A stretch of 64,000 nucleotides of DNA from assembly GCA_016839705.1 (NCBI GenBank), contig JAEOTR010000041.1:32001-96000 (forward strand), in the 5' to 3' direction. This DNA is from Promethearchaeota archaeon. Its GTDB lineage: Archaea; Asgardarchaeota; Lokiarchaeia; Sigyniarchaeales; SOKP01. A program made the position numbers and the translations under genes. Shown piece after piece: positions 23,251 to 42,614 of the stretch. Numbering within the stretch: position 1 is the first letter of the stretch; every line of letters begins with the position of its first letter. The notes below the pieces were generated by a model. That model searched no databases. It worked only from the letters and a program-made list of their open reading frames with translations, and was not told where the DNA came from.

Positions 23251-23940
23251 TTGATCTGCGGTATTGACGAGGCTGGTAGAATATAATCTATCTCGGATTA
23301 TATACCAAAAGGCCCCGTAATTGGTCCTCTTGTGTTATGTGGAGTTTGCTATAAAGAATCCAATTTATCCTATTTAGAGCGGATTGGCGTAAAAGACTCT
23401 AAAAAATTAACTGCCAAAAGGAGGAGAATTTTAGCTAAATTAATAAAGGAATCGTGCCATTCATTTAAAATAATTGTCGTTCCTCCCCGAGAAATTGATG
23501 AAAGGGAAGAAAAAAGAATTACTCTGAATAAACTCGAGGAATTAAAAATGGCTGAAATTATTAGAGAATTAAAACCTGATACTATCTATATTGACGCAGT
23601 TGATGTAAATGAAGAAAGATTTACCCAATCAATCCTAGACCTCTTAAATTATAGCCCAAAAGAAATTATTTCAAAACATAAAGCTGATGACCTATTCCCT
23701 ATTGTATCTGCGGCTTCAATTATAGCAAAAGATAAAAGAGATGCATTAATTGAGGAATTAAAGGAAAAATATGGAGATTTCGGCTCTGGATATCCCTCAG
23801 ATTTAAGAACCACAGATTTTCTTCGGGAATATATAAAGAAAAAACAAAAAATACCCCCCTACGCGAGAAAAACATGGGATACAATAAAGAAAATAGTGGA
23901 TGAAGAATTAGGAAACAAAAAAATAACCGATTTTTTCTAA
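23251..23940 (+). CDS. rnhB: Ribonuclease HII, join(23251..23279,23310..23940), interrupted by a 30-nt intron
   Basis: AAGGAG RBS, TTG 23251; spliced product MICGIDEAGRGPVIGPLV..VKDSKKL..KADDLFPIVSAASIIAK..GSGYPSD; C-terminal PIP box NKKITDFF; 219 aa. Confidence 0.93.
23280..23309 (+). other. Putative bulge-helix-bulge (tRNA-type) intron in rnhB mRNA
   Basis: UGGU/ACCA 4-bp helix, 3-nt bulges AGA and AAA, inner stem AUAUAAUC/GAUUAUAU; in-frame TAA at 23284-23286. Confidence 0.85.
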
Positions 23941-23942
23941 GT

Positions 23943-24635
23943 TTATCGTTTTTTCACTAATAAAACAATATGATTTGCTGCGTATTTATGAATGTTAATG
24001 CTTTCAATAATTTTATATCCCCTGTTTTCAAGAATTTTCTTTTCTTGGGCATAGATATATTCAGATTTTTGGACACTATCAATAGATTGAGATTTGACTG
24101 CTAAAACTAATAATCCTTTCTCGTTTAGATAATAATTACTATTATCTATAGCTATTTCTGCTTGGTTAGGTTGAGAAACATCCTGATAAATTAAATCTAT
24201 TTTTGAAAATATTGATTTTGCATATTCATCTGGATATCGAGCATCAGCAAAAATGGGAATAACATTTTTCCTTCGAGAGGTATTTTGTATTAACTGCCGA
24301 ATGCTTCTTTCTGCAAATTCAACACCATAAATTATACCGTTCGTCAGTATATCAGAAAGATGAGAAATAGTAGTGCCAGAAGAAGCTCCTAAATATAAAC
24401 AGCTTAAATCGTCGGATAGAAAATTATTAATTGGATTTTCCAATATTAGAGCTGCCAGTTTACTCCGAAATGGGTCCCATTCCCTATATTCATTTTCTTT
24501 ATATTCGAGCAACCGTTCTCCATAAACTCTATTTCCTTTATCTCTGTTTCTTGTATAAAGTCTCAATTTTTCTTTGGATCCAGATGTGAAAACATTGCAA
24601 AATTTAGGATGATTTTTTATTTCAATTTGTGACAT
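23943..24635 (-). CDS. flpA: Fibrillarin-like rRNA/tRNA 2'-O-methyltransferase
   Basis: VYGE, YREWDPFRSKLAA, LYLGASSGTTISHLSD, DARYP, YQDVSQPNQ. Confidence 0.96.
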   Translation of the reverse strand: MSQIEIKNHPKFCNVFTSGSKEKLRLYTRNRDKGNRVYGERLLEYKENEYREWDPFRSKLAALILENPINNFLSDDLSCLYLGASSGTTISHLSDILTNGIIYGVEFAERSIRQLIQNTSRRKNVIPIFADARYPDEYAKSIFSKIDLIYQDVSQPNQAEIAIDNSNYYLNEKGLLVLAVKSQSIDSVQKSEYIYAQEKKILENRGYKIIESINIHKYAANHIVLLVKKR

Positions 24636-24646
24636 GCTTTATCACC

Positions 24647-25849
24647 TTATCTTCTCTTTTTTGGCTTCTTTTTCTTTCCTTTAACAGGCTCTTCCTTTTT
24701 AGGTGGATTTGGATATTTAATTTCGATTTCGTTTATTTTAGATTCAATTTCTTTTGCTAGCTTATCTCCTATGAATTCACCGTTAAAATAATCGAGTTTA
24801 GCAGCAACTCCAATTTTCCCTGCGACTATTCGAGCAATTTTTCCACGATGATATGATTTTGCTGACCTTATTTGATTCCATTGGAATATTAAACCATGTT
24901 TTGGGCGTTTCTCTCCCGTTTTGAGAAAACGATAAAGAGCTTTTTCAGCCCCTAACAATTGTATTCTTGATGCTGGCATAAAAGCCAGTTTTTTCATACT
25001 ACCTGCTTTGGCGATAAGTTTAGCTCCGATTAATGCTCCGATAATAGCATTTATGTTGGGGGCAATCTTTTCCATTATATCTGCTAGATTAATTTCTAAA
25101 TCTTGTCTATACGAGTCTATAGAGATTATTTGATTTGCATAATCTTTAACCATTCCTAAATCAAAATCCGCTCCCATTGAATCTGAAGCAAATTTCTGCA
25201 AAATTCGAATTTTTTTCTCTCCAAGTTCAAAATGTTTTATTAGATTTTCGTAAGTATATCTCTCCCTTGCTCCTAAAGTAGAAACCATTTTTGCTAAAAG
25301 AATGTTATCTTCAATAATCTTATCGGTTAATTCTGGAAAATATAAACCATACCATTCTCTGAGTTGACTTGAAAATAAACTTATAGATTTTTTAAGTATA
25401 TCTAGAGTACCAATGATCTGAATAATTAAATTATCAGAATGACCACTTTCTTCTCTTACTTTTTTCTTGGTTAATTCCTCGTTGATTATTTTATATTGTG
25501 CGAGAATTTCATCTTTCCTTTTAATTATTCCTATGTTTTTTAATTGAGTTTCTAAATTGAGACGAAAATTTTTAAGTTCAAGTGAATCACTTTCTAAAAG
25601 TATACCATATCCTAATTGTTTTGTTAGTGTATGTAATTGTTTATTATCAAATACAAACTCTTCAAATCCAGAATTCTTCAATTCAGATAAAAACTCTTTG
25701 TATTTACTCTGAATGATACCTTTATCAATATCAATATAGAATTGAATAATTTTCTGGGTATCATTTTCAAAATCAATAAAATTCAAAATGGTTCCAGTTT
25801 CATCAAAAGCGAAAATCCCAACTAAAGTATCTGCTATATATGACTTCAT
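24647..25849 (-). CDS. nop5: C/D box sRNP protein Nop5 (Nop56/58)
   Basis: LREWYGLYFPEL, IAPN, PASRIQLLGAEKAL, PKHGLIFQ, basic tail. Confidence 0.95.
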   Translation of the reverse strand: MKSYIADTLVGIFAFDETGTILNFIDFENDTQKIIQFYIDIDKGIIQSKYKEFLSELKNSGFEEFVFDNKQLHTLTKQLGYGILLESDSLELKNFRLNLETQLKNIGIIKRKDEILAQYKIINEELTKKKVREESGHSDNLIIQIIGTLDILKKSISLFSSQLREWYGLYFPELTDKIIEDNILLAKMVSTLGARERYTYENLIKHFELGEKKIRILQKFASDSMGADFDLGMVKDYANQIISIDSYRQDLEINLADIMEKIAPNINAIIGALIGAKLIAKAGSMKKLAFMPASRIQLLGAEKALYRFLKTGEKRPKHGLIFQWNQIRSAKSYHRGKIARIVAGKIGVAAKLDYFNGEFIGDKLAKEIESKINEIEIKYPNPPKKEEPVKGKKKKPKKRR

Positions 25850-25924
25850 TTTTATGAGAAAAACAGAGATATTTTTTCGTCATTAATAATTATTATAAAA
25901 TTATAATCATTATTTTCTTAAAAA

Positions 25925-26851
25925 ATGCTTGAAATAAATCTCTCTGGGTTAAAGCTAAAATCTCCTCTTATTTTAGCTTCTGGAATTCTAGGTGTATCCT
26001 ATTCTTCAATGAAGAGAATATTCAATGCCGGGGCTGGGGCAGTAACTTCTAAATCGATTGGACCTAGAGCAAGAAAAGGTTATAAAAACCCTTCTATCTT
26101 AGAGATTTATCCCGGTACTTTTATAAATGCTGTTGGTCTTGGAAATCCTGGAATTGATAATTTCTTATCTGAAATTAAAGAAATAAAAGAAAATAAAATC
26201 CCCCTTATAGTTAGTGTGTTTGGAGATACAAACCAATCATATTTAAATGTTGCTACTAAAGCAGAACAGGCAGGTGCCGATGCTATTGAGATTAATATAT
26301 CTTGTCCACACGCAGAGGTATCATCGATAGGAATAGACAAAGATCTAACTTATTCCCTAGTTAAAACTCTAAAAGAAAAATTAGAAGTCCCGCTTTTTGT
26401 TAAGTTAAACCCTAACGTTACAAGTATAGGGGAAATAGCTTTAGCAGCGGAAAAGGGTGGTGCTGATGGAGTCGTTGCGATAAATACTCTAAGTGCTATG
26501 GTAATTGATATAAACACTAAAAGACCAATATTAGCTCATGGAAGTGGGGGTCTATCTGGAAGGGCGATTCATCCAATTGCCATTAAAAAAGTATATGATC
26601 TTTATCAATTATTAAAAATTCCAATTATTGGATGCGGAGGCATCTCTACTTGGAAAGAAGTAGTCGAATTTATATTGGCGGGTGCTTCTGCTGTTCAAAT
26701 TGGGACTGCACTTTATAGGGGTGTCGAGATCATTACTGAAATTAATAATTCCTTACTCAATTTTCTAAAGATTAACGGATATAAATCTATATCTGAATTA
26801 ATTGGATTATCACATGAATTTAAAACTCAGGAGGTACCTGATTTTGACTGA
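25925..26851 (+). CDS. pyrD: Dihydroorotate dehydrogenase 1B catalytic subunit
   Basis: ILASG, NAVGLGNPG, EINISCPH, VKLNPN, AINT, GGLSG, AVQIGT. Confidence 0.93.
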   Translation: MLEINLSGLKLKSPLILASGILGVSYSSMKRIFNAGAGAVTSKSIGPRARKGYKNPSILEIYPGTFINAVGLGNPGIDNFLSEIKEIKENKIPLIVSVFGDTNQSYLNVATKAEQAGADAIEINISCPHAEVSSIGIDKDLTYSLVKTLKEKLEVPLFVKLNPNVTSIGEIALAAEKGGADGVVAINTLSAMVIDINTKRPILAHGSGGLSGRAIHPIAIKKVYDLYQLLKIPIIGCGGISTWKEVVEFILAGASAVQIGTALYRGVEIITEINNSLLNFLKINGYKSISELIGLSHEFKTQEVPDFD

Positions 26852-27692
26852 AAACATAATAAGAACAGTCATTATAACAAAATCAACAGATGAATGTAAA
26901 GACATTAAAACATTATCATTCAATATGAAAGAGGAGAACACAAACTACATTCCACCAAAACCTGGGCAATTTGTTATGATTTGGGTTCCTGGTGTTGATG
27001 AAATCCCTATGTCTATATCTGATTGTGATATAAATGGAAATTGGAGTATTACAGTAAAAAATATTGGTGAATGTACCAATGCGATTTATAACCTAAAAGA
27101 GGGTGATTTTATTGGCGTCAGAGGACCTTTAGGTAATTGGTTTGAACTTCCGGAAGAAAAATCTAAAAACATATTTTTAATCGGGGGAGGAATAGGTATG
27201 GCTCCTCTTCGTTTTCTTACCCAAGAGTTGTATAAACATAAATTTTCCTTTATTCTAATTCAAGGTGCAAAAATCAAAAGCGAATTAATGTTTACAACTC
27301 AATTTCAAATGTTAGACAAGAATTCTACCGATATTTTTTATTGTACTGAAGATGGGAGTTATGGAACCGAAGGCATTGTAACTCTAGCTTTTGAAAGAAT
27401 TTTGGAAACTTACTCAAAAAGGCTACATTCAAATGCAATAACTTATACTTGTGGTCCTGAAAAAATGATATATTCTATCTACGAAATATGTGAGAAATGG
27501 AATATAGAACTTCATGCTAGTCTGGAGCGAATAATGAGATGTGGGTGTGGGCTGTGTGGATTGTGTGCAATCGATCCTTTAGGTTTATTAGTTTGTAAAG
27601 ACGGACCTGTATTTAAGACTGAATCCTTAAAGAAGATGGAAGATTTTGGAAAATATAAAAGAGATTTTACCGGTAGGAAAGTAAAATTGTAA
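26844..27692 (+). CDS. pyrK: Dihydroorotate dehydrogenase electron transfer subunit (TTG start after GGAGG)
   Basis: PGQFVMIWVPG, RGPLGN, GGGIGMAP, CGPE, CGCGLCGLC..VCKDGPVF. Confidence 0.92.
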   Translation: MTENIIRTVIITKSTDECKDIKTLSFNMKEENTNYIPPKPGQFVMIWVPGVDEIPMSISDCDINGNWSITVKNIGECTNAIYNLKEGDFIGVRGPLGNWFELPEEKSKNIFLIGGGIGMAPLRFLTQELYKHKFSFILIQGAKIKSELMFTTQFQMLDKNSTDIFYCTEDGSYGTEGIVTLAFERILETYSKRLHSNAITYTCGPEKMIYSIYEICEKWNIELHASLERIMRCGCGLCGLCAIDPLGLLVCKDGPVFKTESLKKMEDFGKYKRDFTGRKVKL

Positions 27693-27723
27693 AAACCTAA
27701 TTATTTTTTGAATATCACTTGAC

Positions 27724-29355
27724 ATGGCTTCTGAAAAAACTGAATTTCCTGAAAAAATTGAAAAAATCTCTAGGGAAATAATCAAATTCCTAATTCAGAA
27801 TCCACAGACTTCTCGGAAAAGAATTACTAATATAAAAGGTAAAATAGGAAAAAAATTCAACTTTAAAAAAGTTATTAAGAATGCTACAATCTTAGATTAT
27901 GCTACTCCAGATGAGAAAGAAATTATTCTTCCAATCCTGAAAAGGAGATCTACTAGAACCTTATCAGGTGTCTCTGTTATAGCTATAATGACGAAACCAC
28001 TTCCATGTCCAGGAACATGCATTTACTGTCCCGGACAGAATTCACAACCCGGTGAAAAGGTAGCCCAATCTTACACTGGTCGAGAACCCGCAGCCATGAG
28101 ATCTATCCATAATAATTATGACCCTTATCAACAAGTACAGAGCAGAATCAGAGATTTGGAGGTCATCGGTCATACTGTAGACAAAATTGAGCTTATTTGT
28201 ATGGGAGGTACCTTTTTATCTACAGATCTCAATTATCAACAAGAATTCATTAAGGGTGCTCTTGAAGGGATTATTGAACAGAGAGTTAAGAGCTTAGAGG
28301 AAGCTAAAAAGCTTGCTGAAACTTCTAAAAGAAGAGTTATAGGAATTACTGTTGAAACTAGACCAGATTATTGTAAAGAGGAACATGTAGACAGAATGCT
28401 TAAATATGGAACAACTCGAGTTGAACTTGGCATACAAACAGTCTATGATGATGTTTATGATTTGGTTAAAAGAGGTCATACCTCTATTGATAGCATTGAA
28501 GCAATTAGAATTGCTAAAGATGCGGGTTTAAAAATAAATGCTCATATAATGCCCAATCTGCCTGGTTCTGATTATTCTAAAGATTTAGAATTATTTGATA
28601 CATTATTTTCTAACTCCAATTATCGGCCAGATATGCTAAAGATTTATCCAACTTTAGTAATACATGGGACAGAATTGTATAATTGGTGGAAAGAAGGCAA
28701 ATATTCTCCTTACTTAGATGAAGAATTAATAGATTTAATCGCAAAGGTTAAAACTAATCTTCCACCTTATGTTAGGATTCAAAGAATTATGAGAGATATT
28801 CCCGCAACTTTAATTGAAGCTGGTTGCAAAAACAGCAATTTAAGGCAAATAGTGCAAGAAAGATTAAGAGAAATAGAAGATACATGTAAATGTATAAGAT
28901 GTAGGGAGTATGGGATCAGGAAGAAAAAGGAAATTATCGATGAGCGCTCTCTCGACGAAATTAAATTATATCGACTAGATTATGAAGCATCCGAAGGACA
29001 AGAAATTTTCTTGTCTTACGAGAATCAGAAAGAAGGATATTTGGTAGGTTATTTACGCTTACGACAACCCTCTGAATCTGCTCATAGACCTGAATTAAAT
29101 GATGGAAGGACCTTGATCGTAAGGGAAATTAAAGTTGTTGGCGAATTAGTACCAAGGGATATGAAGCCAAATCGATTTTCTCAAATCCAGCATCGAGGAT
29201 TTGGAAAGATGTTAATGCAAAATGCTGAGAAAATCTCATTCGAAGAATTCAATGCAAAAAAATTAGCCGTGATTAGCGGTATAGGTGCTAGAGATTGGTT
29301 CTATGAAATGGGATATAATTTAGATGGGGTATATGTTTCTAAATCTTTTGAATAA
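27724..29355 (+). CDS. elp3: Elongator complex protein 3 (tRNA U34 carboxymethyltransferase; radical SAM plus KAT)
   Basis: RTLSGV, CPGTCIYCPG, QSYTGREP, ETRPD, LKIYPTLV, RIQRIMRDIP, QHRGFG, VISGIG. Confidence 0.95.
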   Translation: MASEKTEFPEKIEKISREIIKFLIQNPQTSRKRITNIKGKIGKKFNFKKVIKNATILDYATPDEKEIILPILKRRSTRTLSGVSVIAIMTKPLPCPGTCIYCPGQNSQPGEKVAQSYTGREPAAMRSIHNNYDPYQQVQSRIRDLEVIGHTVDKIELICMGGTFLSTDLNYQQEFIKGALEGIIEQRVKSLEEAKKLAETSKRRVIGITVETRPDYCKEEHVDRMLKYGTTRVELGIQTVYDDVYDLVKRGHTSIDSIEAIRIAKDAGLKINAHIMPNLPGSDYSKDLELFDTLFSNSNYRPDMLKIYPTLVIHGTELYNWWKEGKYSPYLDEELIDLIAKVKTNLPPYVRIQRIMRDIPATLIEAGCKNSNLRQIVQERLREIEDTCKCIRCREYGIRKKKEIIDERSLDEIKLYRLDYEASEGQEIFLSYENQKEGYLVGYLRLRQPSESAHRPELNDGRTLIVREIKVVGELVPRDMKPNRFSQIQHRGFGKMLMQNAEKISFEEFNAKKLAVISGIGARDWFYEMGYNLDGVYVSKSFE

Positions 29356-29502
29356 TTAAGATTTCTAAATTCCTAGAGTATTGAATAGTCTGAACTTGAA
29401 AAGTTATTAACTTACATTTAAAAAATTATGTTTTTTTATAAGTTAATATACAAAAAGTTACATTATATTTTTGTGTCTAAAAAATAGGGTTATGGGTAAA
29501 AA

Positions 29503-30573
29503 ATGACATCAACAACAAAAAAAACTTCTCAACAAACAATTTCGATAAGTCCTAAACTTAAAGAACGAATTGAAAAATATGTCACGGCAAACCAACAGAA
29601 ATTTCCAAAAGATAATAGGTTTAAAAGTATTTCTGCTTTTTATACCAGCGTGATGGAAAAGGTATTGGATAGTTTTGAAAAAGGTAAAACTCTTGATGAT
29701 TTTGAAAGCTTTGTGGATAGTGATATTAAAGATTTTTTCGAGAAAATCTCCTTTAATGGGCTTATTCCGTATTACGAGGATGCAATTATAGCCAATAGAT
29801 ACCAAACTACTACTCTTGAAAGAAATCCTTTTTTCTACTTCACACTGAGAAGGTTCTATACATCAAGAATGGACCCCTATGATATTAAGAGCATACAATC
29901 CGTGTTCGATAGAGTTAGAAATTATATTCTTTCAAATAATCTTACTAAAGAATTCAGGTTAGATATTTTCTCTGGAAAAGGTGAAAAAAATCTAACGGCG
30001 GTTTTTGAACAAGCAGGTTTACATCAAAATTTATGTTTTGAGAATTTCAAATTTTCGGCAGCACTTTTCGGCTTATTAGGCGCAAAAATTACTAATTATC
30101 TATATTCCAGAAAAAATAATTATTGTAGATTTGATCTAAAAACTACAGATTTATTTTATCGAAAAGAGCTTTTAAAAAGAGAAAGGATCAAGCTAATGGA
30201 AGATAACTTATCCCATTTTATAAATTATAATAGAATAGTAGAAGATAAAGACTTTTTCCTATGGATGAAGATAGCGAGAGATAAGAATGCTTTCATATCG
30301 TTTACTAATGATGAAACTAAACAAGAATGGGTAAACTTAATAGAAAGCGAAATTGAACAATTTGGGGATGAAGATGATTATCATCTTAATATACTAAGGC
30401 TTTTTCAGAGACTTCATTGGATCGAAATTGAAAATGAGAAAGAATTGTTATTCCGAATTATACTACCCACATCTACAGACCAAAGTAATATCGATTATTT
30501 ATTAGAAACCCTTTCAAAAAAGGTAGAAATTATAATAAACAATGGTAAATATCAATTAAAAAAAAGGAAATGA
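29503..30573 (+). CDS. Hypothetical regulator with N-terminal ribbon-helix-helix-like domain (paralog 1)
   Basis: QQTISISPKLKERI..FKSISAFY; full-length similarity to 30913..32001. Confidence 0.55.
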   Translation: MTSTTKKTSQQTISISPKLKERIEKYVTANQQKFPKDNRFKSISAFYTSVMEKVLDSFEKGKTLDDFESFVDSDIKDFFEKISFNGLIPYYEDAIIANRYQTTTLERNPFFYFTLRRFYTSRMDPYDIKSIQSVFDRVRNYILSNNLTKEFRLDIFSGKGEKNLTAVFEQAGLHQNLCFENFKFSAALFGLLGAKITNYLYSRKNNYCRFDLKTTDLFYRKELLKRERIKLMEDNLSHFINYNRIVEDKDFFLWMKIARDKNAFISFTNDETKQEWVNLIESEIEQFGDEDDYHLNILRLFQRLHWIEIENEKELLFRIILPTSTDQSNIDYLLETLSKKVEIIINNGKYQLKKRK

Positions 30574-30912
30574 AAGGCTAAAAAGATTAGATCTCATCCC
30601 TCAATTATCCTGTTTTGTTAATACCTGGTTTTTGCCTTTATGTCCTTAAAGATTCCCGTCTTTCCCCTTGATTTTATTGTCTAAATATAATTCATGACTA
30701 TGAATATTTAAAGTAATATATTAGTCATTAAAAACATGAAATTTTAAAAATGTACACTAAAAAAAGATTTTTAAAGAAAATTAGAATAGAAACATAATAT
30801 TGGATAATATGTATTTTGTAAAGTAAATAATATTAAAGAAAATTTATATTTAGCTTATGTGAATTAAAAACATGGTAGATTTTATCTACTAAATATTTAA
30901 TAATTAAGTAAA

Positions 30913-32001
30913 ATGTTTATAATTATGTCATCAAAGAAGTTCCTGTCAACAAAAAAAACAGCACAACAAACTATTTCTATTAGTCCTGCGCTTAAAGATT
31001 GGATAACAAGGTATGTCCGAGTAAATCACCAAAAAAATCAGAAAGATGATCGATATAAAAGTGTTTCAGCTTTCTATAATTATGTCATGGAAAAAACCCT
31101 GAGTCTATATAAAAAGGGAAAGACTCTGGACGATATTGAAAGAATTGAGGATAAAAAAATTAAAGATTTCTTTGATCGTTTTACATTTAAAGCTACAATT
31201 CCACTTTATGAAATGGTAATAGAGGATCACAAGTATTCGCCCTTTTCATTTGAATTTAATACCCGTTTTCTATTATTGTATTTAGATATGTTTAGGAGAG
31301 AAGTAAAATCACATAATTTTGAAGATGTCGACATTTTCTTCGAAAGGATAAGAAGTCGATATGCAAAGACTACAGTATCAAAAGAAATGAGATTAGACTT
31401 GTCTCTAGGTAATGATAGAGAACCTGCCAGGGGAATTTTAGAGTTTATCGGAAAATACAAGAATCTCCATTTTGAAAATTGTAAGTTTTTCGCTGCGGTT
31501 TTCGGTATCCTTGGAGTGCGAATTACTGATTTCATTTATTCACCAGATGATTATTATTGTCGATTAGAACTCCTTGAAACTGATCTTTTGTTTAACAGAG
31601 AAGATCTTGCAAAGAAAGAGAGACTGAAACTAATAGAAGAGAATGTAGAGTACATAATTAATTACGATAGGTTGCTCGAAGAAAAGGATATGTACCTGTG
31701 GGTGAAATTAGCTGACGATAATGAAGTATTTCTATCTTTCAAAAATCAAACCGCATTTAATAAATGGATTAAAACTATCGAGGTTCAATTGCAAAAATTT
31801 GGGAAGAAAGAAGAATTTTTAGAAAAAATATTATTATTCTTTAATAAACTTCATTGGATTGGAATTGAGAATAGGAAACACCTTTCTTTTCGAATTGAAC
31901 AAGTAATAGAAGAAACTAAAGAACAGAAACAGTATCTAATTAATTATCTTTCAAAATTTTCAAAAATCTCAGAAATGGAGGGAATTTATTACTTGAAATA
32001 G
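30913..32001 (+). CDS. Hypothetical regulator with N-terminal ribbon-helix-helix-like domain (paralog 2)
   Basis: QQTISISPALKDWI..YKSVSAFY; shared FENxKFxAAxFGxLG motif. Confidence 0.55.
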   Translation: MFIIMSSKKFLSTKKTAQQTISISPALKDWITRYVRVNHQKNQKDDRYKSVSAFYNYVMEKTLSLYKKGKTLDDIERIEDKKIKDFFDRFTFKATIPLYEMVIEDHKYSPFSFEFNTRFLLLYLDMFRREVKSHNFEDVDIFFERIRSRYAKTTVSKEMRLDLSLGNDREPARGILEFIGKYKNLHFENCKFFAAVFGILGVRITDFIYSPDDYYCRLELLETDLLFNREDLAKKERLKLIEENVEYIINYDRLLEEKDMYLWVKLADDNEVFLSFKNQTAFNKWIKTIEVQLQKFGKKEEFLEKILLFFNKLHWIGIENRKHLSFRIEQVIEETKEQKQYLINYLSKFSKISEMEGIYYLK

Positions 32002-32130
32002 AATTTATTTATAGGTAACTTAAATTAGGATAAAATAGATCTGTATTTCCACTTAACATTATACCCCAAACTTTTTTTAAAAATGATTATATCTAAAATT
32101 CTTGAGAAATTACTTTTTATGTGATTTATT

Positions 32131-34044: not shown

Positions 34045-34049
34045 AATGA

Positions 34050-35408
34050 ATGAGTGAAAATTTAAAGGGATATAAAGGAGAGGGGAAAGAACTTTTAGAA
34101 AAGTATAAAGTAAATATTTGGGATATAATTCAAATTAAAACCGCAAAAACCAGTTATGAAGGGATAATTTTACCCAGAAGTGAATATTCTGTTGCGAATT
34201 ATATAAACCTTAAGTTAGAAAATAATTATAATGTTGGAATTAAAGTTACCGAAATCAAGGAAATAAAAAAGATTGGAAAAAGAGAAGCTTCATATAAAAT
34301 TCCTGAGAAAGAATTTCCAAAAAATAAGGCTCTTCCTAATGTAACTCTTTTAGGAACTGGTGGAACTGTTGCTTCACGATTAGATTATACCACTGGGGGA
34401 GTAATCCCATCCTTTACACCTGGAGAATTATTTAGTTCTGTTCCAGAGTTGGCTGAAATATGCAACCTTGATTGTGAAATGGTATTTGAAATCTTATCCG
34501 AAAATATGAAACATGAATACTGGCAGAAATTGGCCAAAAAAGTCGAGGAAGCAGCTAATTCCGGCATTGAGGGGATTATGATTGGTCATGGTACAGACAC
34601 TATGTCTTTTACTAGCGCAGCTTTGTCCTTCATGCTCAAAGATTTATCAATTCCCGTAGTGTTGGTAGGGAGTCAAAGAAGCTCTGACAGGCCTTCTTCC
34701 GATGCTGCTTTAAACTTAATTAACGCAGCTGTCGTAGCTAGCTCTGATATCGCTGAAGTAGTGGTTTCAATGATGGGATCATCTTCTCATACCTATGCTT
34801 TAATTCATCGAGGAACATTAGTAAGAAAAATGCATTCTTCTGTTAGACACACATTCAGAACCATAGATAGCATTCCTTTAGGAATGGTTCGAAATAGAAA
34901 AACCAAAATGTTTACCCAAGATTATAGAAAAAGATCAAAATCAGAAACGAAGGCAATTACAGAATTCGAAAATAAAATCACTCTAATCTATTCATATCCT
35001 GAAATAGATAATGAATTGATCGATTTTTTCATTGATAAAGGGTATAAAGGGATAGTTCTAGCCGGAACGGGATTAGGACATGTACCTACAACTCTTTATG
35101 ATTCAATAAAAAGAGCAATTCAGGAAGGAATAACCATTCTTATGACTACTCAAACTCTACATGGTTATGTGGGTATGAATGTGTATTCGACTGGAAGAGA
35201 ACTACAAAACATGGGTGTTATACCCGGTAGAAACCTGTTACCGGAAGTTGGTTATGTTAAATTAGGTTGGGTATTAGGACAGACAAGCAATCCTGAAGAA
35301 ATTAAAAAATTACTTCTACAAAATATCGCAGGTGAATTTGTAGCTAGAGAACTACCTATTGCTTTTAATTATAATATTGATGAACTTCTCAAAAATAAAA
35401 AACTCTAA
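34050..35408 (+). CDS. gatD: Glu-tRNA(Gln) amidotransferase subunit D
   Basis: KLENNYNVG, GTGGTVASRLDY, HGTDTM, GSQRSSDRPSSD, RKMHSS. Confidence 0.96.
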   Translation: MSENLKGYKGEGKELLEKYKVNIWDIIQIKTAKTSYEGIILPRSEYSVANYINLKLENNYNVGIKVTEIKEIKKIGKREASYKIPEKEFPKNKALPNVTLLGTGGTVASRLDYTTGGVIPSFTPGELFSSVPELAEICNLDCEMVFEILSENMKHEYWQKLAKKVEEAANSGIEGIMIGHGTDTMSFTSAALSFMLKDLSIPVVLVGSQRSSDRPSSDAALNLINAAVVASSDIAEVVVSMMGSSSHTYALIHRGTLVRKMHSSVRHTFRTIDSIPLGMVRNRKTKMFTQDYRKRSKSETKAITEFENKITLIYSYPEIDNELIDFFIDKGYKGIVLAGTGLGHVPTTLYDSIKRAIQEGITILMTTQTLHGYVGMNVYSTGRELQNMGVIPGRNLLPEVGYVKLGWVLGQTSNPEEIKKLLLQNIAGEFVARELPIAFNYNIDELLKNKKL

Positions 35409-35539
35409 AATCTCTTCTCTTAATAGATACAACAGTAAAACCTTTATTCATATCCTTTACATCACTTCTTAGCGAAAATGATAAAAAATTTATAGTTAAA
35501 ATAATTTAAAATTATATCCACAAAATATCGTGAAGTTTT

Positions 35540-36262
35540 ATGGGAAAACGAATACTTGCTCAGCGAAAAGGTCGAGGATCTTTACCATTTCGATCACCCT
35601 CACATCGCCATATAGGTGCTGTAAAATATCGTCCATTTTTAGAAGGACAAAATGAATTCACATTTAAAGTAATTGAATTACTGCACTCTCCTGGTAGAGG
35701 TGCGCCTGTGGCATTAATAAAATACAATGATGATAAAAAATCTCTATGGCTTCCTCCCGAAGGTATTTTTGAAGGTGAAGAATTCATCCAATCTAATTCC
35801 CAAACTGAGATTAAAGTAGGGAATATCTTACCCTTAAAAGATATACCACTTGGAACTTTAGTATTTAATGTTGAATCAGCTCCTCAAGATGGAGGAAAAT
35901 TCGCGAGATCCTCTGGAGTTTCGGCAATTGTAAGAAATAGAACCGGAAATAAAGTAGAACTTCTATTCCGTTCGAAAAGAACAAAATGGATCCATGAAAA
36001 ATGCTTAGCAACTATCGGTGTGGTCGCTGGTGGAGGTCGTACAGATAAACCTTTCCTTAAAGCGGGGAACAAGTATCATTACAATAAATCCAAAGCAAAG
36101 AAATGGCCCGTCGTTCGCGGTGTTGCTATGAATGCTGTATCTCATCCTTATGGAGGCGGCGCAAAACAAAGTCCACATAAATCAACCACAACTTCAAGAA
36201 ATAGACCTCCTGGACGTAAAGTAGGACAAATTGCGGCTAGGAGAACAGGACATCAAAATTAA
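35540..36262 (+). CDS. rpl2: 50S ribosomal protein L2
   Basis: MGKRILAQRKGRG, PGRGAP, WPVVRGVAMNAVSHPYGGG, PPGRKVGQIAARRTG. Confidence 0.97.
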   Translation: MGKRILAQRKGRGSLPFRSPSHRHIGAVKYRPFLEGQNEFTFKVIELLHSPGRGAPVALIKYNDDKKSLWLPPEGIFEGEEFIQSNSQTEIKVGNILPLKDIPLGTLVFNVESAPQDGGKFARSSGVSAIVRNRTGNKVELLFRSKRTKWIHEKCLATIGVVAGGGRTDKPFLKAGNKYHYNKSKAKKWPVVRGVAMNAVSHPYGGGAKQSPHKSTTTSRNRPPGRKVGQIAARRTGHQN

Positions 36263-36429
36263 AATCTCTATTCTAAATTTAATACAACAATCTATTGAAG
36301 CTTTAATTCATTTTAGTGCGAAAAATAGAGCATCTAAGATCTTATAAAGCTAAATCTAAAAGTTATTTAAAAATTAGAAAATATTACTTTTTAGCCCTAA
36401 TCTTATTTAAAAAAAGAATAACAGAATAA

Positions 36430-37320
36430 TTAGTTTGCATTAAAATTGAAACTAATATGTTGTAAAAACTCCTTATATCTTGAGCGAAGTGTTACTTCTG
36501 TCACCCCGATAACTCTTGAAATGTCCTTCTGGCTTATTTTTTGGTTTTTTAGCTTGGAAATCAAATAAATCGATCCTGCACACAAACCTTTTGGATCCTT
36601 GCCGCAAATTGATGTATTTGCTATGAAGTTCTTTAAAACTTTAATTGCCTCCTTCTCTATCTGAATATCAAGCCCTAAATCTGCACAATACCTTGGAATT
36701 AACGCAACCGGATCGATATGTGGTGATTTTAAGTTGAGCTCACGTACTAAAATTTTATAGCACTTCTTCACAATGTTATCATTAATCGATGCCTCGTCTA
36801 ATATCTCCTGCAAGGTTATTGGAACTCTCTCCTGCTTGCATACATAATACGCGCACGCTGCAATCATCCCATTAATAGACCTTCCCCGTAAAAGGTTTTT
36901 CTTAAATACCTCTTTATAAAGACGGACTGCTGCCTTCTTCACACGCTCAGGAAAATTTAAATTGCCACCAATTCTCTTTAACTCAGTTATGGCTATAAGC
37001 ATATTTCTTTTTTCCCATGATAAATGCGTGTTCCATTTAGCTGCCCTCCTTAAATCAGGATTCTTGATCATCTTCCTATCAATGATAGTACTCAACCCAA
37101 TATCCGGCATTAAAATAGAAATAGGACAGCCTGTCCGTTCTTTTTTATCCTTCTCCGACTTTGAATAGGCTCTTATACCACTATGAGAAATATCTACTTC
37201 TTTCTCACCTACAACTAAACCACACTGCTGACACACTGTCTCCCCTCTCTGGTGGATAGAGATTGTACCCCCGCCACATTCCGGACAAAAATTCGATTGT
37301 GGAATTACCTCAACGACCAT
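36430..37320 (-). CDS. tfb: Transcription initiation factor IIB
   Basis: CPECG..VCQQCG Zn ribbon, two cyclin repeats, GKDPKG, GVTEVTLRSRYKE. Confidence 0.95.
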   Translation of the reverse strand: MVVEVIPQSNFCPECGGGTISIHQRGETVCQQCGLVVGEKEVDISHSGIRAYSKSEKDKKERTGCPISILMPDIGLSTIIDRKMIKNPDLRRAAKWNTHLSWEKRNMLIAITELKRIGGNLNFPERVKKAAVRLYKEVFKKNLLRGRSINGMIAACAYYVCKQERVPITLQEILDEASINDNIVKKCYKILVRELNLKSPHIDPVALIPRYCADLGLDIQIEKEAIKVLKNFIANTSICGKDPKGLCAGSIYLISKLKNQKISQKDISRVIGVTEVTLRSRYKEFLQHISFNFNAN

Positions 37321-38131
37321 GTCTTTTTACCTTTTCCCAAATCTTATGTTTAATTTGTATTTTTGTTAATTTTTTACACACACTTTCAATGAAAAATCCT
37401 TTTGTACTCATAAAGGTGTAAAAAGTTATTCTTTGTTATAACAATAGATCCCTAATTCATATATAAATCTTTTCGTTATAAAAATTCCTTTATATATGCA
37501 AATTTTTCAAAATTTTTGTTCAAATTTGTTATAATATTTATATGGGTTATAATGTAAAAAAGTATGAAATATCTTTTATTGAAATGACATAATATCAGCA
37601 TAATACATATTTTGGGTAAAAATCCATAATAAGAAAGAATTGAAGTACGATTTGGGGGTACAAATGAGGTATAGCTAATTTTTTATTACAAAAATGTAAA
37701 AGAGAGAGTTATTTTTCGGATACAATTAACGACAAAAAACGACGTAAATCAAATATTCCGCAATTTTGACAAAAATATGGTTTGTGGTAAAAAAATATAA
37801 ATACGAATTTTTTGTGAAAATTTGTAATCAATGGAAGTTAAACCAGTTTAGATCTTTATATAATCAATTTATTTTTTATATCATCCTTATAACAGCACAA
37901 TTGATATTAGAAAATACATGAATCAAAGATATTATGAGAAAATCGATTTAAACATAATTTCGCATTGAAATCCACATTCTTATACATTACATCTAAAAAA
38001 AATTTAGTTAACTATTATTTTTATCCATAATGACATCTCGCAAATATTATCTAATAAAAAAACATTAAATACAAGTTCTTTTATTAAGTTTTCAACAAAA
38101 ACTAACACATTCATTTAGTGGTCAAAAAACT

Positions 38132-39082
38132 TTGAAGCCAGAGGAGCCAGAGAACCCATCTGATAAAATTATTGGTAATCCAGATGACATGGATTTAATT
38201 AAAATTGATTATAATTCCTTTGAGAAGACGGAAGATATGAAAAGATATGAGGATGAAACTGGCAAATACTCGGTATGGCGGGGCATTGTAACGGAAGGAT
38301 TTAAAAAGTGGCAACGAGGAGAAAAAATCTATCATCGAGAAAAAGAACGAATTTCACTCTATGTTTCCGATGAAACCAAAGCAAAATGGATAGAATATAC
38401 CAAAAGTGATGGCACTACCATTTCGAAGTTGATAAGGGAAGCGGTTGAGTCATTTATTGAAAATCAAGAGAATCATAGTAATCATAATTTATCGATGTTC
38501 GATCCTCAAACGATTTCCACTATTTCTCATACATTAAAAGAACCGTTAACTTCAATTAAAGGTTATTCGCAATTGCTTATTGAAAATTACCGAGAAAAAT
38601 TGAATGATCAAGTTTTAGAGACGGTAAAAAATATATTTGAGCAGAGTATTCTTCTCGAAAAGAAAATTATTAACATATTAGATAATATTAAAGTAGAACC
38701 TGAGCATGAAGTTTTACTAATTGAAGATGACCTTGCAACTATTCGACTTATTAAAAACTATTTTGAAAGTAAAGGCTATAAATGTAAAGGAGTTGTTAGT
38801 GGTTCGAAAGGATTGGAAGAATTAGGAAATGCTATTCCAAAACTGATATTATTAGATATAATTTTACCAGATTTGAGTGGATACGATATCTGTATAAATA
38901 TAAAATCTGATAATGAATATAAAAATATCCCTGTTTTTTTCTTAACTGCTATAGCGGGTTCTGAAGTACAGAAAAACTTAGAGGAAACTAAAGCCGATGG
39001 GTATATCTTAAAACCTTTTAATTTTTCTGACTTCGAAGTTATCTTCGATATTTTAAAAAAGAAGAGAAAAAAAGAAAAATAA
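38132..39082 (+). CDS. RHH plus HisKA (H-box) plus receiver-domain protein, paralog 1
   Basis: RISLYVSDETK..TISKLIREAVE; ISHTLKEPLTSIKGY; LLIEDD..LILLDIILPD..LTA..KPF; no HATPase domain. Confidence 0.8.
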   Translation: MKPEEPENPSDKIIGNPDDMDLIKIDYNSFEKTEDMKRYEDETGKYSVWRGIVTEGFKKWQRGEKIYHREKERISLYVSDETKAKWIEYTKSDGTTISKLIREAVESFIENQENHSNHNLSMFDPQTISTISHTLKEPLTSIKGYSQLLIENYREKLNDQVLETVKNIFEQSILLEKKIINILDNIKVEPEHEVLLIEDDLATIRLIKNYFESKGYKCKGVVSGSKGLEELGNAIPKLILLDIILPDLSGYDICINIKSDNEYKNIPVFFLTAIAGSEVQKNLEETKADGYILKPFNFSDFEVIFDILKKKRKKEK

Positions 39083-39382
39083 ATTTCTAGATATTTGAAG
39101 ACTCATACTAAATTCTCGAATATTCACCATTTCACTAACATATATAGGCTATTTTAGGGATAACACAATAATATAAATATTCTTGAGTAAGATATATAAA
39201 ATGATAAAAAACTACACAATATTGTAAACAACTATTTAATGAACTGCAAATTTTATAAAAAAAGGAATTATCTACAACAATGGTTATCAATTTTAAATAA
39301 ATAGTATACAAAAATATTAATAACAGAAATTTTACCTAATTATATAGAAATATTACTCAAAGAAGAAAGAGGGGGAAAGGAT

Positions 39383-40345
39383 ATTTCAAAAGAGAAAAAA
39401 AACTCCAATAACAATGATTCTAAAGATCTAGAAAATGATTATGAAAAATTAAGTTTCACCGATGAAGAAATAACGAACTTAAAGGTGGGGAGCAAACAAT
39501 TTGAGGAGTTAAGGAAATTATACGAAGATCAGACTCATAAATACGCCGAATGGCGTGGTACTATAACCGAAGGGTTTAAAAAGTGGTTAAAAGGAGAAAA
39601 AATCTATGACAGAGATAAAGAACGAATCTCTCTCTATGTATCAGAAGATACTAAAACAAAATGGGAAGATTTTAAGGATTCAAATAAATATTCGACAATA
39701 TCCGCATTAATCAGAGATAGTGTTGATTATTACATTGAACAAAAATCCGATTTTTTAAGTGGAGGATTACAGGGGATGCCTGAAAAGACCATCTCCAACA
39801 TATCTCATGCCTTAAAGGAGCCGTTGACAACTATAAAAGGCTTCAGTCAACTTCTTCTGGAGAATTACAAAGATGAATTAGATTCTGAAGTATTATCGAC
39901 AATAAAGAACATTTTTGATCAGTCTATGTTGCTTGAGAATAAAATTATTAATATTCTTGATAACATTAAAACAGAAGACGTTGAACATCAGTATGATATC
40001 CTCCTGATTGAAGATGACCTTGTCACGATTAGGTTATTAACGAGTTACTTCGAAAGTAAGGGCATTAAATGTAAGGGAGTGGTTAGTGGTACCAAAGGTT
40101 TAGAGGAAATAAGAGGTGGTGCCCCCAAATTAATACTTTTAGACATAATTCTACCTGATATATCCGGATATGAAATCTGTAAAATGATAAAAGATCATAG
40201 TAAATATAAAGAAGTGCCTGTATTCTTGTTGACAGCTATTCCTGGTTCTGAAGTTGAAAAGAAAATTGCTGAAACGAAAGCAGATGGTTACATCTTAAAA
40301 CCATTTGATTTTTCAGATTTCGAAATATTATTCCAATACATTTAG
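39383..40345 (+). CDS. RHH plus HisKA plus receiver-domain protein, paralog 2 (ORF-track start 39485)
   Basis: Same architecture, ISHALKEPLTTIKGF; frame open upstream to ATT 39383 after GAGGGGG. Confidence 0.8.
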   Translation: MSKEKKNSNNNDSKDLENDYEKLSFTDEEITNLKVGSKQFEELRKLYEDQTHKYAEWRGTITEGFKKWLKGEKIYDRDKERISLYVSEDTKTKWEDFKDSNKYSTISALIRDSVDYYIEQKSDFLSGGLQGMPEKTISNISHALKEPLTTIKGFSQLLLENYKDELDSEVLSTIKNIFDQSMLLENKIINILDNIKTEDVEHQYDILLIEDDLVTIRLLTSYFESKGIKCKGVVSGTKGLEEIRGGAPKLILLDIILPDISGYEICKMIKDHSKYKEVPVFLLTAIPGSEVEKKIAETKADGYILKPFDFSDFEILFQYI

Positions 40346-40365
40346 GATCCCAAGTTAAAACTTTT

Positions 40366-40809
40366 TTATTTAATTGACCCTAAATAAACATAGGTTTTTT
40401 TCTGTCGGTTTTTTTTAAGAATCTTATAACGGGTATATCCATCCAACAATTCCATTCCATTATTATTAACTATTAAAGGTTCGATGGAACTCCCTCGTAA
40501 TACCGATTCTTCCATCTCTTCAGCCCTCAAAGTTAATTCTTCTAAAAAATTATAACCATCTTTTTGATAATTCATTAAGTTAGATCTAAGTTTAATATCA
40601 TCCAAATTTATGATTACTAATTTAAATTTCATATTGGGTACGAGATTTAACCATTCAGTAGTCCATGTTTGGTCGGGAAATTCCTCATGATCACGTTGCC
40701 ATTCTTTTCCAATCCATTTTAACAAAAATGGCTTCAAATTGTTTTTGTTTTTTACTAAGTAATATGTGAAGTTGCCGAGTTTTTTATATATAAATATCTT
40801 TCTCATCAA
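40366..40809 (-). CDS. ParB/sulfiredoxin-like N-terminal domain protein
   Basis: IEPLIV...ELLDGYTRY motif. Confidence 0.55.
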   Translation of the reverse strand: MMRKIFIYKKLGNFTYYLVKNKNNLKPFLLKWIGKEWQRDHEEFPDQTWTTEWLNLVPNMKFKLVIINLDDIKLRSNLMNYQKDGYNFLEELTLRAEEMEESVLRGSSIEPLIVNNNGMELLDGYTRYKILKKNRQKKTYVYLGSIK

Positions 40810-40819
40810 GGAATAATAA

Positions 40820-40893
40820 CGGGCTATGAGGGAATCGAACCCCCGACCGTCAGGTTAAGAGCCTGCTGCGCTACCTGCCTGCGCTAATAGCCC
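40820..40893 (-). tRNA. tRNA-Lys(CTT), intronless
   Basis: Reverse complement GGGCTAT...CAGG CT CTT AA CCTG...GGGGG TTCGATT CCCTC ATAGCCC G forms a cloverleaf. Confidence 0.93.
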
Positions 40894-40916
40894 AAATAAT
40901 ATGTCCAATGAAAATG

Positions 40917-41018
40917 CGCAGATGGAGGGACTCGAACCCCCGAGCGCTCCCGCGCACTGGCTTGCTTGAATGCATTAGATACTCAAGGCCAGCGTCTTAC
41001 CAGCTAGGCTACATCTGC
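40917..41018 (-). tRNA. tRNA-Ser(TGA) with 19-nt canonical 37/38 intron (40963-40981)
   Basis: GCAGATG/CATCTGC acceptor, CTGGC/GCCAG anticodon stem, long variable arm, BHB helix CTTG/CAAG. Confidence 0.9.
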
Positions 41019-41195
41019 TGATTTAAAATTATTTTGTATTTTTATTTTAAAATATTGTAGTTCTATTAAAATAGATTATATACAGCAAAATAAATGTTTT
41101 TTCATTTTTTTCTTTATATCTTTAGAGCTCTCCCGTCGTTTTAAGAAAAATATAAATTTTATGATACATTGAATCCTACTTGAGATGATAAAAAT

Positions 41196-41684
41196 ATGAG
41201 TGGATCAAAAGATTTTCGTTATCTGATACCTGAAAGTTTATTTCAAGAAATTACCCAAAAGAGCGCAGAAGAGCATCCTATGATTTGTCACGGGTGGCTC
41301 TTTGCAGAGCGTAAAGAAAACTTCGGTATTTGCACTAAATTTATTATGAATACAGATTTACGTAAGACTAAAGCTCACGTTAAGCCAAGAAGCTGGATGA
41401 GATATAAAAAATCAAAGATTTATAATATGCGGAAATTTAAAGAGGAGCTTGGTGTGGACATTGTGTGGCAATGGCACTCTCATCCTAGTGGTAATGAGAA
41501 GCTACACGCTATTGACAAGAGGATATTGAAGTATTTATCAAACGGGGTTATGATAATCGTGATCCCATCAGTTCCAGGGAAAGAACCAGAACAAAAAGCA
41601 CATCTGGTTGGGTGGTACTATGACAAACGGTATACCAAAAAGCCAATCATAGAAAAAATGGTTTTTGAAATAATTTCCGAATAA
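41196..41684 (+). CDS. JAB/MPN (JAMM)-domain protein, atypical
   Basis: WQWHSHP...LHAID; P-x-x-C-x-G-x-L strand lacks the usual Glu. Confidence 0.7.
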   Translation: MSGSKDFRYLIPESLFQEITQKSAEEHPMICHGWLFAERKENFGICTKFIMNTDLRKTKAHVKPRSWMRYKKSKIYNMRKFKEELGVDIVWQWHSHPSGNEKLHAIDKRILKYLSNGVMIIVIPSVPGKEPEQKAHLVGWYYDKRYTKKPIIEKMVFEIISE

Positions 41685-41805
41685 ACAATATTCTTTTTCT
41701 TTTATTTTTTTTGATAAGATGCATGAAATCATATTTTATAATAAAATATTAAAATTTTAAATCGTTATATATACTTACAACTCTACGCTCGGGAAATTAA
41801 ACGAA

Positions 41806-41947
41806 GCTCAGATCATCAATCCTTTAGATTGCTGAAAGAAAGTCGCTTAGCCTGGTAGAGCGCTGGATTGCTAATCCAGTGTCCATCGGATACGTGGGTT
41901 CGAAAAGAAACGCATTTCGCATATTCTTGAAATTCCCACCCTGAGCG
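41806..41947 (+). tRNA. tRNA-Ser(GCT) with two non-canonical introns: 6/7 (41812-41841) and 59/60 (41905-41933)
   Basis: Spliced: GCTCAG|G TC GCTT AGCCTGGTA GAGC G CTGGA TT GCT AA TCCAG, long V arm, GTGGG TTCGAA|T CCCAC CCTGAGC G; TATA-like TTATATA at about 41765. Confidence 0.85.
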
Positions 41948-42148
41948 CTTAAATATTTCGATATATTCAAATCTTCAAGATCAATTTGAAAAATCATCTA
42001 ACCTTCTTTCTTTACGTTTAATAGAATTTGTTAAAAGATCATAAAATAAATTATACTTTTGTGGTAATTTTATGCCTAAATTTTGGAAAAACTCAGTAGC
42101 AAATAAGTCCGACATCAAACGATATTCTAAATAAAAATAACTCAAAGG

Positions 42149-42385
42149 ATGTGGACAAACAAAATTACTGGTAAAACGTCAATTTCATATAAAACTGCTG
42201 TTGCATCAAAAAGTCAGATTTCAAAATTCCTTTCTATAGTGAAGCCCAAAAAGTGGCAATTTAATTGGGAAAGAATAGGTCATAGACTGAAATTAGTCGG
42301 TTCAAATTTTAAAGAAGCACTCAAATATAATAAAGAGAAAACCCTAAGCAATTTTGCTAAAGATGCCTTAAAGGACTTAGAATAG
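42149..42385 (+). pseudogene. Possible C-terminal relic of a LAGLIDADG-type endonuclease
   Basis: YKTAVASKSQISKFLSIVKPKKW resembles the LAGLIDADG C-terminal strand/helix; no intact upstream frame. Confidence 0.35.
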
Positions 42386-42478
42386 TTATATATCATCTAA
42401 ATTCTATATTTAAAAAAATATTAAAATATTGAATGATTATATTATTTCTCTGTGTATTGAGTATATGAGTGTTAACAT

Positions 42479-42614
42479 GGGCCAGTGGTCTAGCGGTTAT
42501 AACAGTAGTTAATTTCTAAAATGTAACAAAGACGTCTCGCTTACACCGAGAAGGTCGGGAGTTCAAAAAGAAATAATAATTCATTATTTCTTGAGAACCT
42601 CTCCTGGCCCACCA
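42479..42614 (+). tRNA. tRNA-Val(TAC) with two non-canonical introns: D-arm (about 42501-42530) and 59/60 (42568-42597); CCA encoded
   Basis: GGGCCAG/CTGGCCC acceptor, TCTCG CT TAC AC CGAGA, GGGAG TTCAAA|C CTCTC; both introns fold with BHB-like geometry. Confidence 0.9.

Follow-up and report, generated by a model that had tools for sequence, protein, structure and literature searches.

Predicted bulge-helix-bulge introns of about 30 nucleotides in tRNA and protein-coding genes of a Sigyniarchaeales archaeon

We analyzed a stretch of 64,000 nucleotides (the 64-kb window, G+C ~30%) from a Promethearchaeota archaeon of the order Sigyniarchaeales (assembly GCA_016839705.1, contig JAEOTR010000041.1, positions 32,001 to 96,000). 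Positions below follow the numbering of the whole window, and the source genome is labeled G000. Within the window, the rnhB gene, a tRNA-Ser(GCU) gene and a tRNA-Val(UAC) gene are interrupted by five short inserts (Table 1). An initial annotation of the window had placed inserts of ~30 nt at these sites, and their lengths are indeed 30 nt in rnhB, 30 nt after nucleotide 6 of tRNA-Ser (Ser 6/7), 29 nt in the tRNA-Ser T loop, 30 nt in the tRNA-Val D arm (or 28 nt in the register with the strict motif) and 30 nt in the tRNA-Val T loop. As first described, all five begin with A, are A+T-rich (17-31% G+C) and have A-rich 3' ends, and the canonical intron at position 37/38 of tRNA-Ser(UGA) is 19 nt long.

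Removal of the inserts restores the interrupted products. The rnhB insert contains an in-frame TAA at 23284, the same reading frame resumes after 30 nt, and the read-through translation has a single Pfam RNase_HII match over residues 3-211 that includes the insert site. The two split tRNA genes were missed by both ARAGORN, which called one tRNA in the window, and Rfam, which matched two. ARAGORN also found no tRNA in either unspliced sequence, but scripted removal of the inserts allowed it to recover an 84-nt tRNA-Ser(gct) and a 76-nt tRNA-Val(tac). For the Val D-arm insert, the 30-nt register makes the mature D arm match intron-less orthologues from 11 congeners, while an alternative register (42502-42529, 28 nt) gives the better motif score. 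Only one tRNA-Ser(GCU) gene is present in the genome catalogue described below.

Each insert was scored for a motif of the bulge-helix-bulge (BHB) type at the end of exon 1 (p) and the end of the insert (q), taking into account a 4-bp central helix, the hairpin within the insert (h') and the outer helix (h). Folding energies were converted to z-scores with 200 dinucleotide shuffles per insert. Because of their pairing scores and z-scores, three of the window motifs (rnhB, Ser T-loop and Val T-loop) are rated good and two (Val D-arm and Ser 6/7) relaxed. The z-scores were -4.35 for the Val T-loop insert (0/200 shuffles equally good), -3.1 for rnhB (2/200), -1.56 for the Ser T-loop insert (11/200), -0.34 for the Val D-arm insert (76/200) and +0.42 for Ser 6/7 (129/200). 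The outer helix spans 5 bp at both T loops and only 0-1 bp in the inserts of rnhB, Ser 6/7 and the Val D arm, as in relaxed motifs of the HBh' type.

Table 1. Positions and motif scores of interrupted genes and inserts in the window, with further protein-gene inserts elsewhere in the genome (C numbers denote contigs; h', insert hairpin; h, outer helix).
Feature	Position	Strand	Insert (nt)	Central pairs	h' (bp)	h (bp)	Remarks
rnhB exon 1	23251..23279	+					TTG start; ends inside Arg codon of DEAGR motif
rnhB insert	23280..23309	+	30	4/4	9	1	Bulge-helix-bulge; central helix TGGT/ACCA, bulges AGA and AAA, 9-bp hairpin
rnhB exon 2	23310..23940	+					
tRNA-Ser(UGA) with canonical 37/38 intron	40917..41018	-	19	4/4		6	Intron 40963-40981
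Second, upstream copy of tRNA-Ser(GCU) 5' acceptor strand	41787..41793	+					Probably not the exon used
tRNA-Ser(GCU) gene	41806..41948	+					Two inserts
tRNA-Ser(GCU) acceptor-stem insert after nt 6 (Ser 6/7)	41812..41841	+	30	2/4	3	1	Relaxed motif
tRNA-Ser(GCU) T-loop (59/60) insert	41905..41933	+	29	4/4	4	5	Strict hBHBh' motif
tRNA-Val(UAC) gene	42479..42614	+					Two inserts; encoded CCA
tRNA-Val D-arm insert	42501..42530	+	30	3-4 of 4 by register	2-3	0	Register by homology with intron-less orthologues
tRNA-Val T-loop (59/60) insert	42568..42597	+	30	4/4	8-10	5	Strict motif
EF-2-like GTPase insert	C82:11187-11216		30				Conserved motif rejoined; Pfam GTP_EFTU (27-277) spans insert
IscU insert	C85:74326-74352		27				Conserved motif rejoined; Pfam NifU_N (1-129) spans insert
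Thioredoxin insert	C49:124158-124187		30				Immediately before WCGPC; Pfam Thioredoxin match (38-96) begins just past insert
Mevalonate kinase insert	C29:8703-8733		31				Frame-shifting scan; motif continuity as sole basis

The rnhB insert is conserved throughout the genus. Every one of the 18 rnhB-bearing genomes of the genus has it at the same codon and 30 nt long, and the gene is contiguous there in all 10 genomes representing other genera in the order. In the ungapped alignment of the 18 inserts, 92.5% of cells are paired compared with 28-41% for slid partners. Three pairs have changed on both sides, and none of 500 shuffles reached the observed covariation score. The codons flanking the insert are conserved. 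One cut contig (L032, carrying rnhB of G029) was left out of the junction views, as was the EF-2-like copy of G018, likewise on a cut contig. Where the rnhB frame is expected to start (23251-23253 in the window), 7 of the 18 genomes have TTG or GTG and the remaining 11 have CTA, TTA or ATA; G009 has an in-frame TTG 13 codons further upstream, within the end of the preceding gene. The start site therefore seems to differ between species.

We then surveyed the whole genome (3.36 Mb in 97 contigs; assembly 93% complete). Seventy-two loci were flagged by ARAGORN with introns allowed (31 calls), Rfam tRNA matches (39, with E up to 10) and T-arm half-motifs, the last restricted to G+C-rich intergenic segments. 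This combination of segments and flags replaced the use of G+C islands as a tRNA finder, which yielded 2,512 islands and was too unspecific. At each locus one, two or three candidate inserts were removed and an ARAGORN cloverleaf was required of the product; where this failed, every possible single stretch was removed without regard to the motif. The resulting catalogue of 44 inserts comprises 37 tRNA inserts with coordinates, the rnhB insert, two tRNA inserts identified by eye only (~36 nt in tRNA-Cys, C36:385-492, and 30 nt in tRNA-Ala(CGC), C49:68927-69030) and four mRNA inserts found later. A tRNA-Arg(UCG) locus (C73:57561-57848) and the SeC-like loci on C16 and C87 were excluded from the counts as uncertain. 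The latter are near-duplicates at contig ends (C16:22854-23079 and C87:137320-137555) that ARAGORN reads as SeC(tca)-like after removal of 37 nt. The locus at C3:36192 is probably no tRNA.

In total, ~25 tRNA genes and at least five protein genes of G000 are interrupted by inserts of one build, and their lengths are concentrated around 30 nt. Sixteen of the 44 inserts are exactly 30 nt long and 26 fall within 28-32 nt. This extends to the whole genome the ~30-nt architecture that the initial annotation had proposed for mRNA and non-canonical tRNA sites of the window. The individual counts were 19 nt (2), 22 (2), 25 (2), 26 (1), 27 (2), 28 (1), 29 (4), 30 (16), 31 (4), 32 (1), 33 (1), 34 (1), 36 (1), 40 (1), 41 (1), 44 (1), 47 (1) and 49 nt (2). 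The 31 non-canonical tRNA inserts include 12 of exactly 30 nt and 19 of 28-32 nt, and the five mRNA inserts measure 30, 30, 27, 30 and 31 nt. There is no 30-nt peak among the six canonical 37/38 introns (19, 22, 22, 49, 31 and 29 nt). The motif filter is not the source of the peak, because in the motif-blind run the excess in gene length by itself was 30 nt for tRNA-Ala(UGC) and tRNA-Pro(GGG). The first base is A in 29/42 inserts and the second-last base is A in 29/38, with A making up ~35% of the genome. Seven tRNAs (Asp, Asn, Ser, Val-UAC, Val-CAC, His and Thr-GGU) share a T-loop insert of 29-31 nt at positions 58-61. Most of the non-canonical tRNA introns and mRNA introns of the genus can be described by a common build of 1 nt, an A+T-rich hairpin of ~23 nt, 4 nt of central helix and 2 nt, which add up to ~30 nt. 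In G026, which belongs to another family, 26 tRNA matches contained seven resolvable single-insert genes with inserts of ~16-19, 36, 28, 26, 25, 28 and 32 nt, a sample too small and biased for judging whether the 30-nt peak is genus-specific.

Common length and build are not accompanied by common sequence. All-against-all local alignment of 38 inserts (703 pairs) gave a mean score of 10.34, compared with 10.31 for dinucleotide shuffles. Seven pairs exceeded the 99th percentile of the shuffles, where 7.03 were expected, and none exceeded the 99.9th. Searches of the genome with blastn-short detected no second copy of any of the 38 inserts, the best non-self matches being 13-19 nt long; two inserts reached E <=0.01, each through a 16-nt A+T-rich word. 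For the four further mRNA inserts, the best non-self matches were 12-16 nt and none was better than E 0.18. Apart from itself, the tRNA-Val gene of congener G011, which carries two young inserts, matched nothing but short A+T-rich words of the G011 genome (best, 26 nt at 88%, E 0.02). With kinship at the level of shuffles and no second copies, the inserts, judged by their sequences, form no family of related, copied sequences and have not been copied from one another recently. The mobile micro-intron family suggested by the initial annotation is thus borne out in its gain and loss between congeners, described below, but not in the related copied sequences that it would entail.

Inserts in further protein genes were sought with a scan for in-frame stretches of 27, 30 or 33 nt that contain a stop codon and a strong hairpin, preceded by a start codon and followed by at least 80 open codons. 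Of its 63 matches, four were accepted, namely the rnhB control and inserts in genes for an EF-2-like GTPase, IscU and thioredoxin. Others were dropped by eye as gene junctions or ORF starts within the "intron", such as a small GTPase at C97:90052-90084. A frame-shifting scan gave 270 matches, among which the mevalonate kinase insert alone was recognized and the remainder were not evaluated. A general scan for fusions of open reading frames gave 125,285 matches, mostly junctions of adjacent genes, with no excess at 27-33 nt, and was unusable for counting mRNA introns. Further mRNA cases thus comprise four genes besides rnhB. All four in-frame inserts contain an internal stop codon, and the mevalonate kinase insert shifts the frame.

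The protein-gene inserts differ in their distribution within the genus. The thioredoxin insert is carried by G000, G002 and G018; in the other 15 congeners the frame is open over 118-125 aa, and the 11 of these that were displayed are contiguous. The IscU insert is found in G000 alone, with 11 displayed congeners contiguous. Homologous 30-nt inserts interrupt the EF-2-like gene in six of 18 genomes (G000, G001, G007, G015, G016 and G017), and the insert is exactly absent from 12 congeners and from four displayed copies of other families. The EF-2-like gene tree pairs carriers with non-carriers as sisters (G001/G003, G015/G013 and G000/G004), and therefore the insert has either been lost precisely several times or moved between species. 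Insert-bearing alleles share synonymous variants on both flanks (GCTCC upstream and GGAGC downstream) with the potential to form an additional outer helix by pairing, and most insert-free alleles have A+T-richer synonymous codons at these positions (loci L078-L096). The EF-2-like gene of G000 also has an in-frame TAA at 581-583 of locus L075, with no ATG, GTG or TTG from there to the P-loop (AHIDHGKTT). The gene has either an unusual start codon or an additional upstream exon; no convincing candidate for a start codon or an intron was found further upstream in this gene.

The tRNA inserts are likewise patchily distributed. In most congeners, the tRNA-Ser/tRNA-Val pair is insert-free with the two genes ~10 nt apart. 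The Ser 6/7 insert is carried by G000, G005 and G010, and the Ser T-loop insert by G000 and G010 but not by 15 other displayed congeners. The Val T-loop insert is 30 nt in each of its carriers (G000, G001 and G017). In the D arm of tRNA-Val, the G011 insert is 29 nt long and lies one base beyond that of G000, and the two sequences are unrelated. Because of this offset and lack of similarity, the D-arm inserts point to independent origins. The tRNA-Val of G011 contains an additional 30-nt insert at 33/34. Orthologues without inserts correspond exactly to the predicted spliced junctions, for tRNA and protein genes alike. By these comparisons, inserts have been gained and/or precisely lost among congeners in both kinds of gene.

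The acceptor stem of tRNA-Ser(GCU) has a particular arrangement. An extra 5' acceptor strand sits ~16 nt upstream in the three carriers of the Ser 6/7 insert, which thus share the duplication. We considered the upstream copy (41787-41793) as the 5' exon, but this is less likely since orthologues join the sequence of the other copy to the body; in the intron-less orthologues of G011, G015 and G016, GCTCAGG is fused straight onto the tRNA body. The shared distribution hints that the acceptor-stem insert arose along with the local duplication.

Several other features of this region were noted. A conserved A+T-rich motif (ATAATAAAATATTAAAATTTT..; window 41730-41775), promoter-like in appearance, precedes the tRNA-Ser/tRNA-Val pair in every congener. 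The two genes are spread apart in G000 and G010, and the 627-nt gap in G000 includes a 78-aa ORF at 42149-42385. In G016, unrelated sequence follows the D arm of the tRNA-Val beside tRNA-Ser, and Val-like pieces occur ~1.4 kb further on (L042/L054/L069). In G012 (L049), tRNA-Ser(GCU) carries another kind of insertion close to its anticodon stem, ~20 nt long and richer in G+C.

Splicing of such inserts would depend on the tRNA-splicing endonuclease EndA and the ligase RtcB. The genome encodes RtcB (C25:19832-21139) and one EndA of 197 aa with N- and C-terminal domains. The best solved relatives of this EndA are the crenarchaeal alpha subunits of A. pernix, S. tokodaii and P. aerophilum (3p1z_B at E 1.3e-34), and its alignment with A. 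pernix alpha is gap-free across the Crenarchaea-specific loop region, where Lys-Pro-Arg is kept. Among the 18 congeners, 15 have an alpha-like EndA match (~100 bits) together with a second paralogue (~72 bits). This set fits the broad-specificity (alpha-beta)2 type, which Kaneta 2018 (PMC5829648) assigns to Asgard archaea, and by sequence the enzyme would have broad specificity. The loop-bearing alpha subunit and the paralogue in congeners are consistent with the relaxed-specificity EndA invoked by the initial annotation.

Together, these results make it probable that the inserts are BHB (tRNA-type) introns of a lineage-specific build, spliced by EndA and RtcB, which turn over within the genus and are not recent copies. 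The transcript would fold into two 3-nt bulges around a 4-bp helix in which exon bases pair with the insert's 3' end. EndA would cleave in both bulges and RtcB would then join the exons, thereby restoring the tRNA cloverleaf or the reading frame. Several observations weigh against this interpretation. A hairpin h' of 3-10 bp was found in all five window inserts, as the initial annotation had stated, but the Ser 6/7 and Val D-arm inserts (2/5) fold no better than shuffles. The catalogue is incomplete, with ~37 tRNA genes resolved, ~12 of them insert-free, and with some boundaries ambiguous by 1-3 nt. A second EndA paralogue was not found in this assembly (E up to 10; 93% complete). Three metatranscriptome runs (word shares 0.05-0.09) gave contigs over parts of the 3' portion of the EF-2-like gene (L075, 1661-2808), none of which reached the junction at 788-817, and so speak neither for nor against splicing. 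Finally, none of the analyses explains the sharpness of the peak at exactly 30 nt. That two motifs are weak and that no splicing was seen would also fit a reading in which the inserts are never removed and the interrupted genes are pseudogenes, assembly errors or read through. We regard this as very improbable, because 18 genomes, assembled independently, have the insert at the same rnhB codon, along with compensatory changes and conserved flanking codons, because the catalogue holds a single tRNA-Ser(GCU) gene, and because every in-frame protein-gene insert contains a stop codon and the mevalonate kinase insert is frame-shifting.

The remaining alternatives concern the source of the introns. 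If one 30-nt intron had spread to new RNA sites by copy and paste, for example through reverse splicing, reverse transcription and recombination or through gene conversion between conserved T arms, then shared length would reflect shared ancestry. This would account for the uniform length, for the seven tRNAs with similar T-loop inserts, for the differences in presence among sister species, and for the retention of 30 nt while the sequence drifts (18/18 rnhB, 6/6 EF-2-like and 3/3 thioredoxin copies). However, similarity among the 38 introns does not rise above the shuffled control, the best non-self matches are short for these and for the four further mRNA introns, neither of the young tRNA-Val introns in G011 recurs elsewhere in that genome, and G000 and G011 carry D-arm inserts of unrelated sequence; we therefore consider such spread improbable. 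Alternatively, a fixed-length process acting on DNA could make ~30-bp hairpin cassettes de novo, with no reusable donor, and the survivors would be those that complete a cleavable motif with the exon. Species-specific inserts of 27-30 nt with near-perfect palindromic stems speak for such a process (29 and 30 nt in tRNA-Val of G011, 30 nt in tRNA-Val of G001 and G017, and 27 nt in IscU), as do the sharp length peak and the lack of donors in own-genome blastn-short searches. We know of no mechanism that inserts hairpin cassettes of fixed length. No enzyme is linked to such insertion here, and the tails of 19-49 nt together with the 27-nt IscU insert indicate that length is not strictly fixed, which leads us to view this process as unlikely. 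For the size of the predicted BHB introns, we favor a narrow optimum in which ~30 nt would be the shortest length at which an A+T-rich hairpin keeps the motif together, with a fixed-length insertion process as a possible cause.

We tentatively raise the idea, about which we are more doubtful than confident, that an active process in this genus keeps making ~30-nt hairpin cassettes wherever exon bases complete a cleavable motif, in tRNA and protein genes. If true, this would be a living prokaryotic case of ongoing gain of protein-spliced introns in mRNAs. Young inserts with an intron-less sister allele supply material that has been missing for the question of how such introns arrive. At a practical level, insert-bearing genes are cut short or overlooked by the usual gene and tRNA callers.

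The inserts can be compared with several known systems. Several of the features that define BHB introns are present, in that removal restores the product, EndA and an RNA ligase are encoded, and a central helix is formed, in relaxed form at Ser 6/7. As in the (alpha-beta)2 EndA with a Crenarchaea-specific (L1) loop of Kaneta 2018 (PMC5829648), the loop region is gap-free and most congeners have two paralogues; this assembly differs in that no beta paralogue was found in it. The Thermoproteales, for which tRNA intron transposition has been described (Sugahara 2008 and Fujishima 2010, as cited in a 2026 preprint on tRNA introns), likewise have many non-canonical introns and share intron positions between different tRNAs. 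Related intron sequences recur there, with 28.3% of introns in families of >=80% identity by the count in that preprint, whereas we found none above chance. Of the two marks of a mobile family of that type, we thus observe presence/absence polymorphism but not related sequences at different sites.

The available text of the same preprint describes tRNA introns much like those reported here, with several per gene at D-arm, T-loop, acceptor and variable-loop positions, BHB-compatible sites and genes that scanners miss. Its section 2.5 also agrees in finding repeated gains and no sign of copying between tRNA genes. The median intron lengths given there are 22-23 nt and the word mRNA does not occur in that text, in contrast to the sharp mode of 30 nt and the same build in coding sequences found here. 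No 30-nt intron size class was reported in the literature searched, a search whose scope did not extend to the preprint's supplementary intron lists. In that literature, protein-spliced introns in archaeal coding sequences are essentially confined to cbf5, and none has been reported for Asgard protein genes. The cbf5 pre-mRNA intron of Crenarchaeota is, according to Yokobori 2009 (PMC2738675), a BHB intron in a protein gene that has been gained and lost between lineages. The protein-gene inserts described here resemble it in that a BHB-type insert lies within the coding sequence and its removal rejoins a conserved motif, most clearly in rnhB, EF-2-like GTPase and IscU. They differ from cbf5 in affecting rnhB, EF-2-like GTPase, iscU, trx and mevalonate kinase genes, with several per genome, a uniform size and turnover within a single genus.

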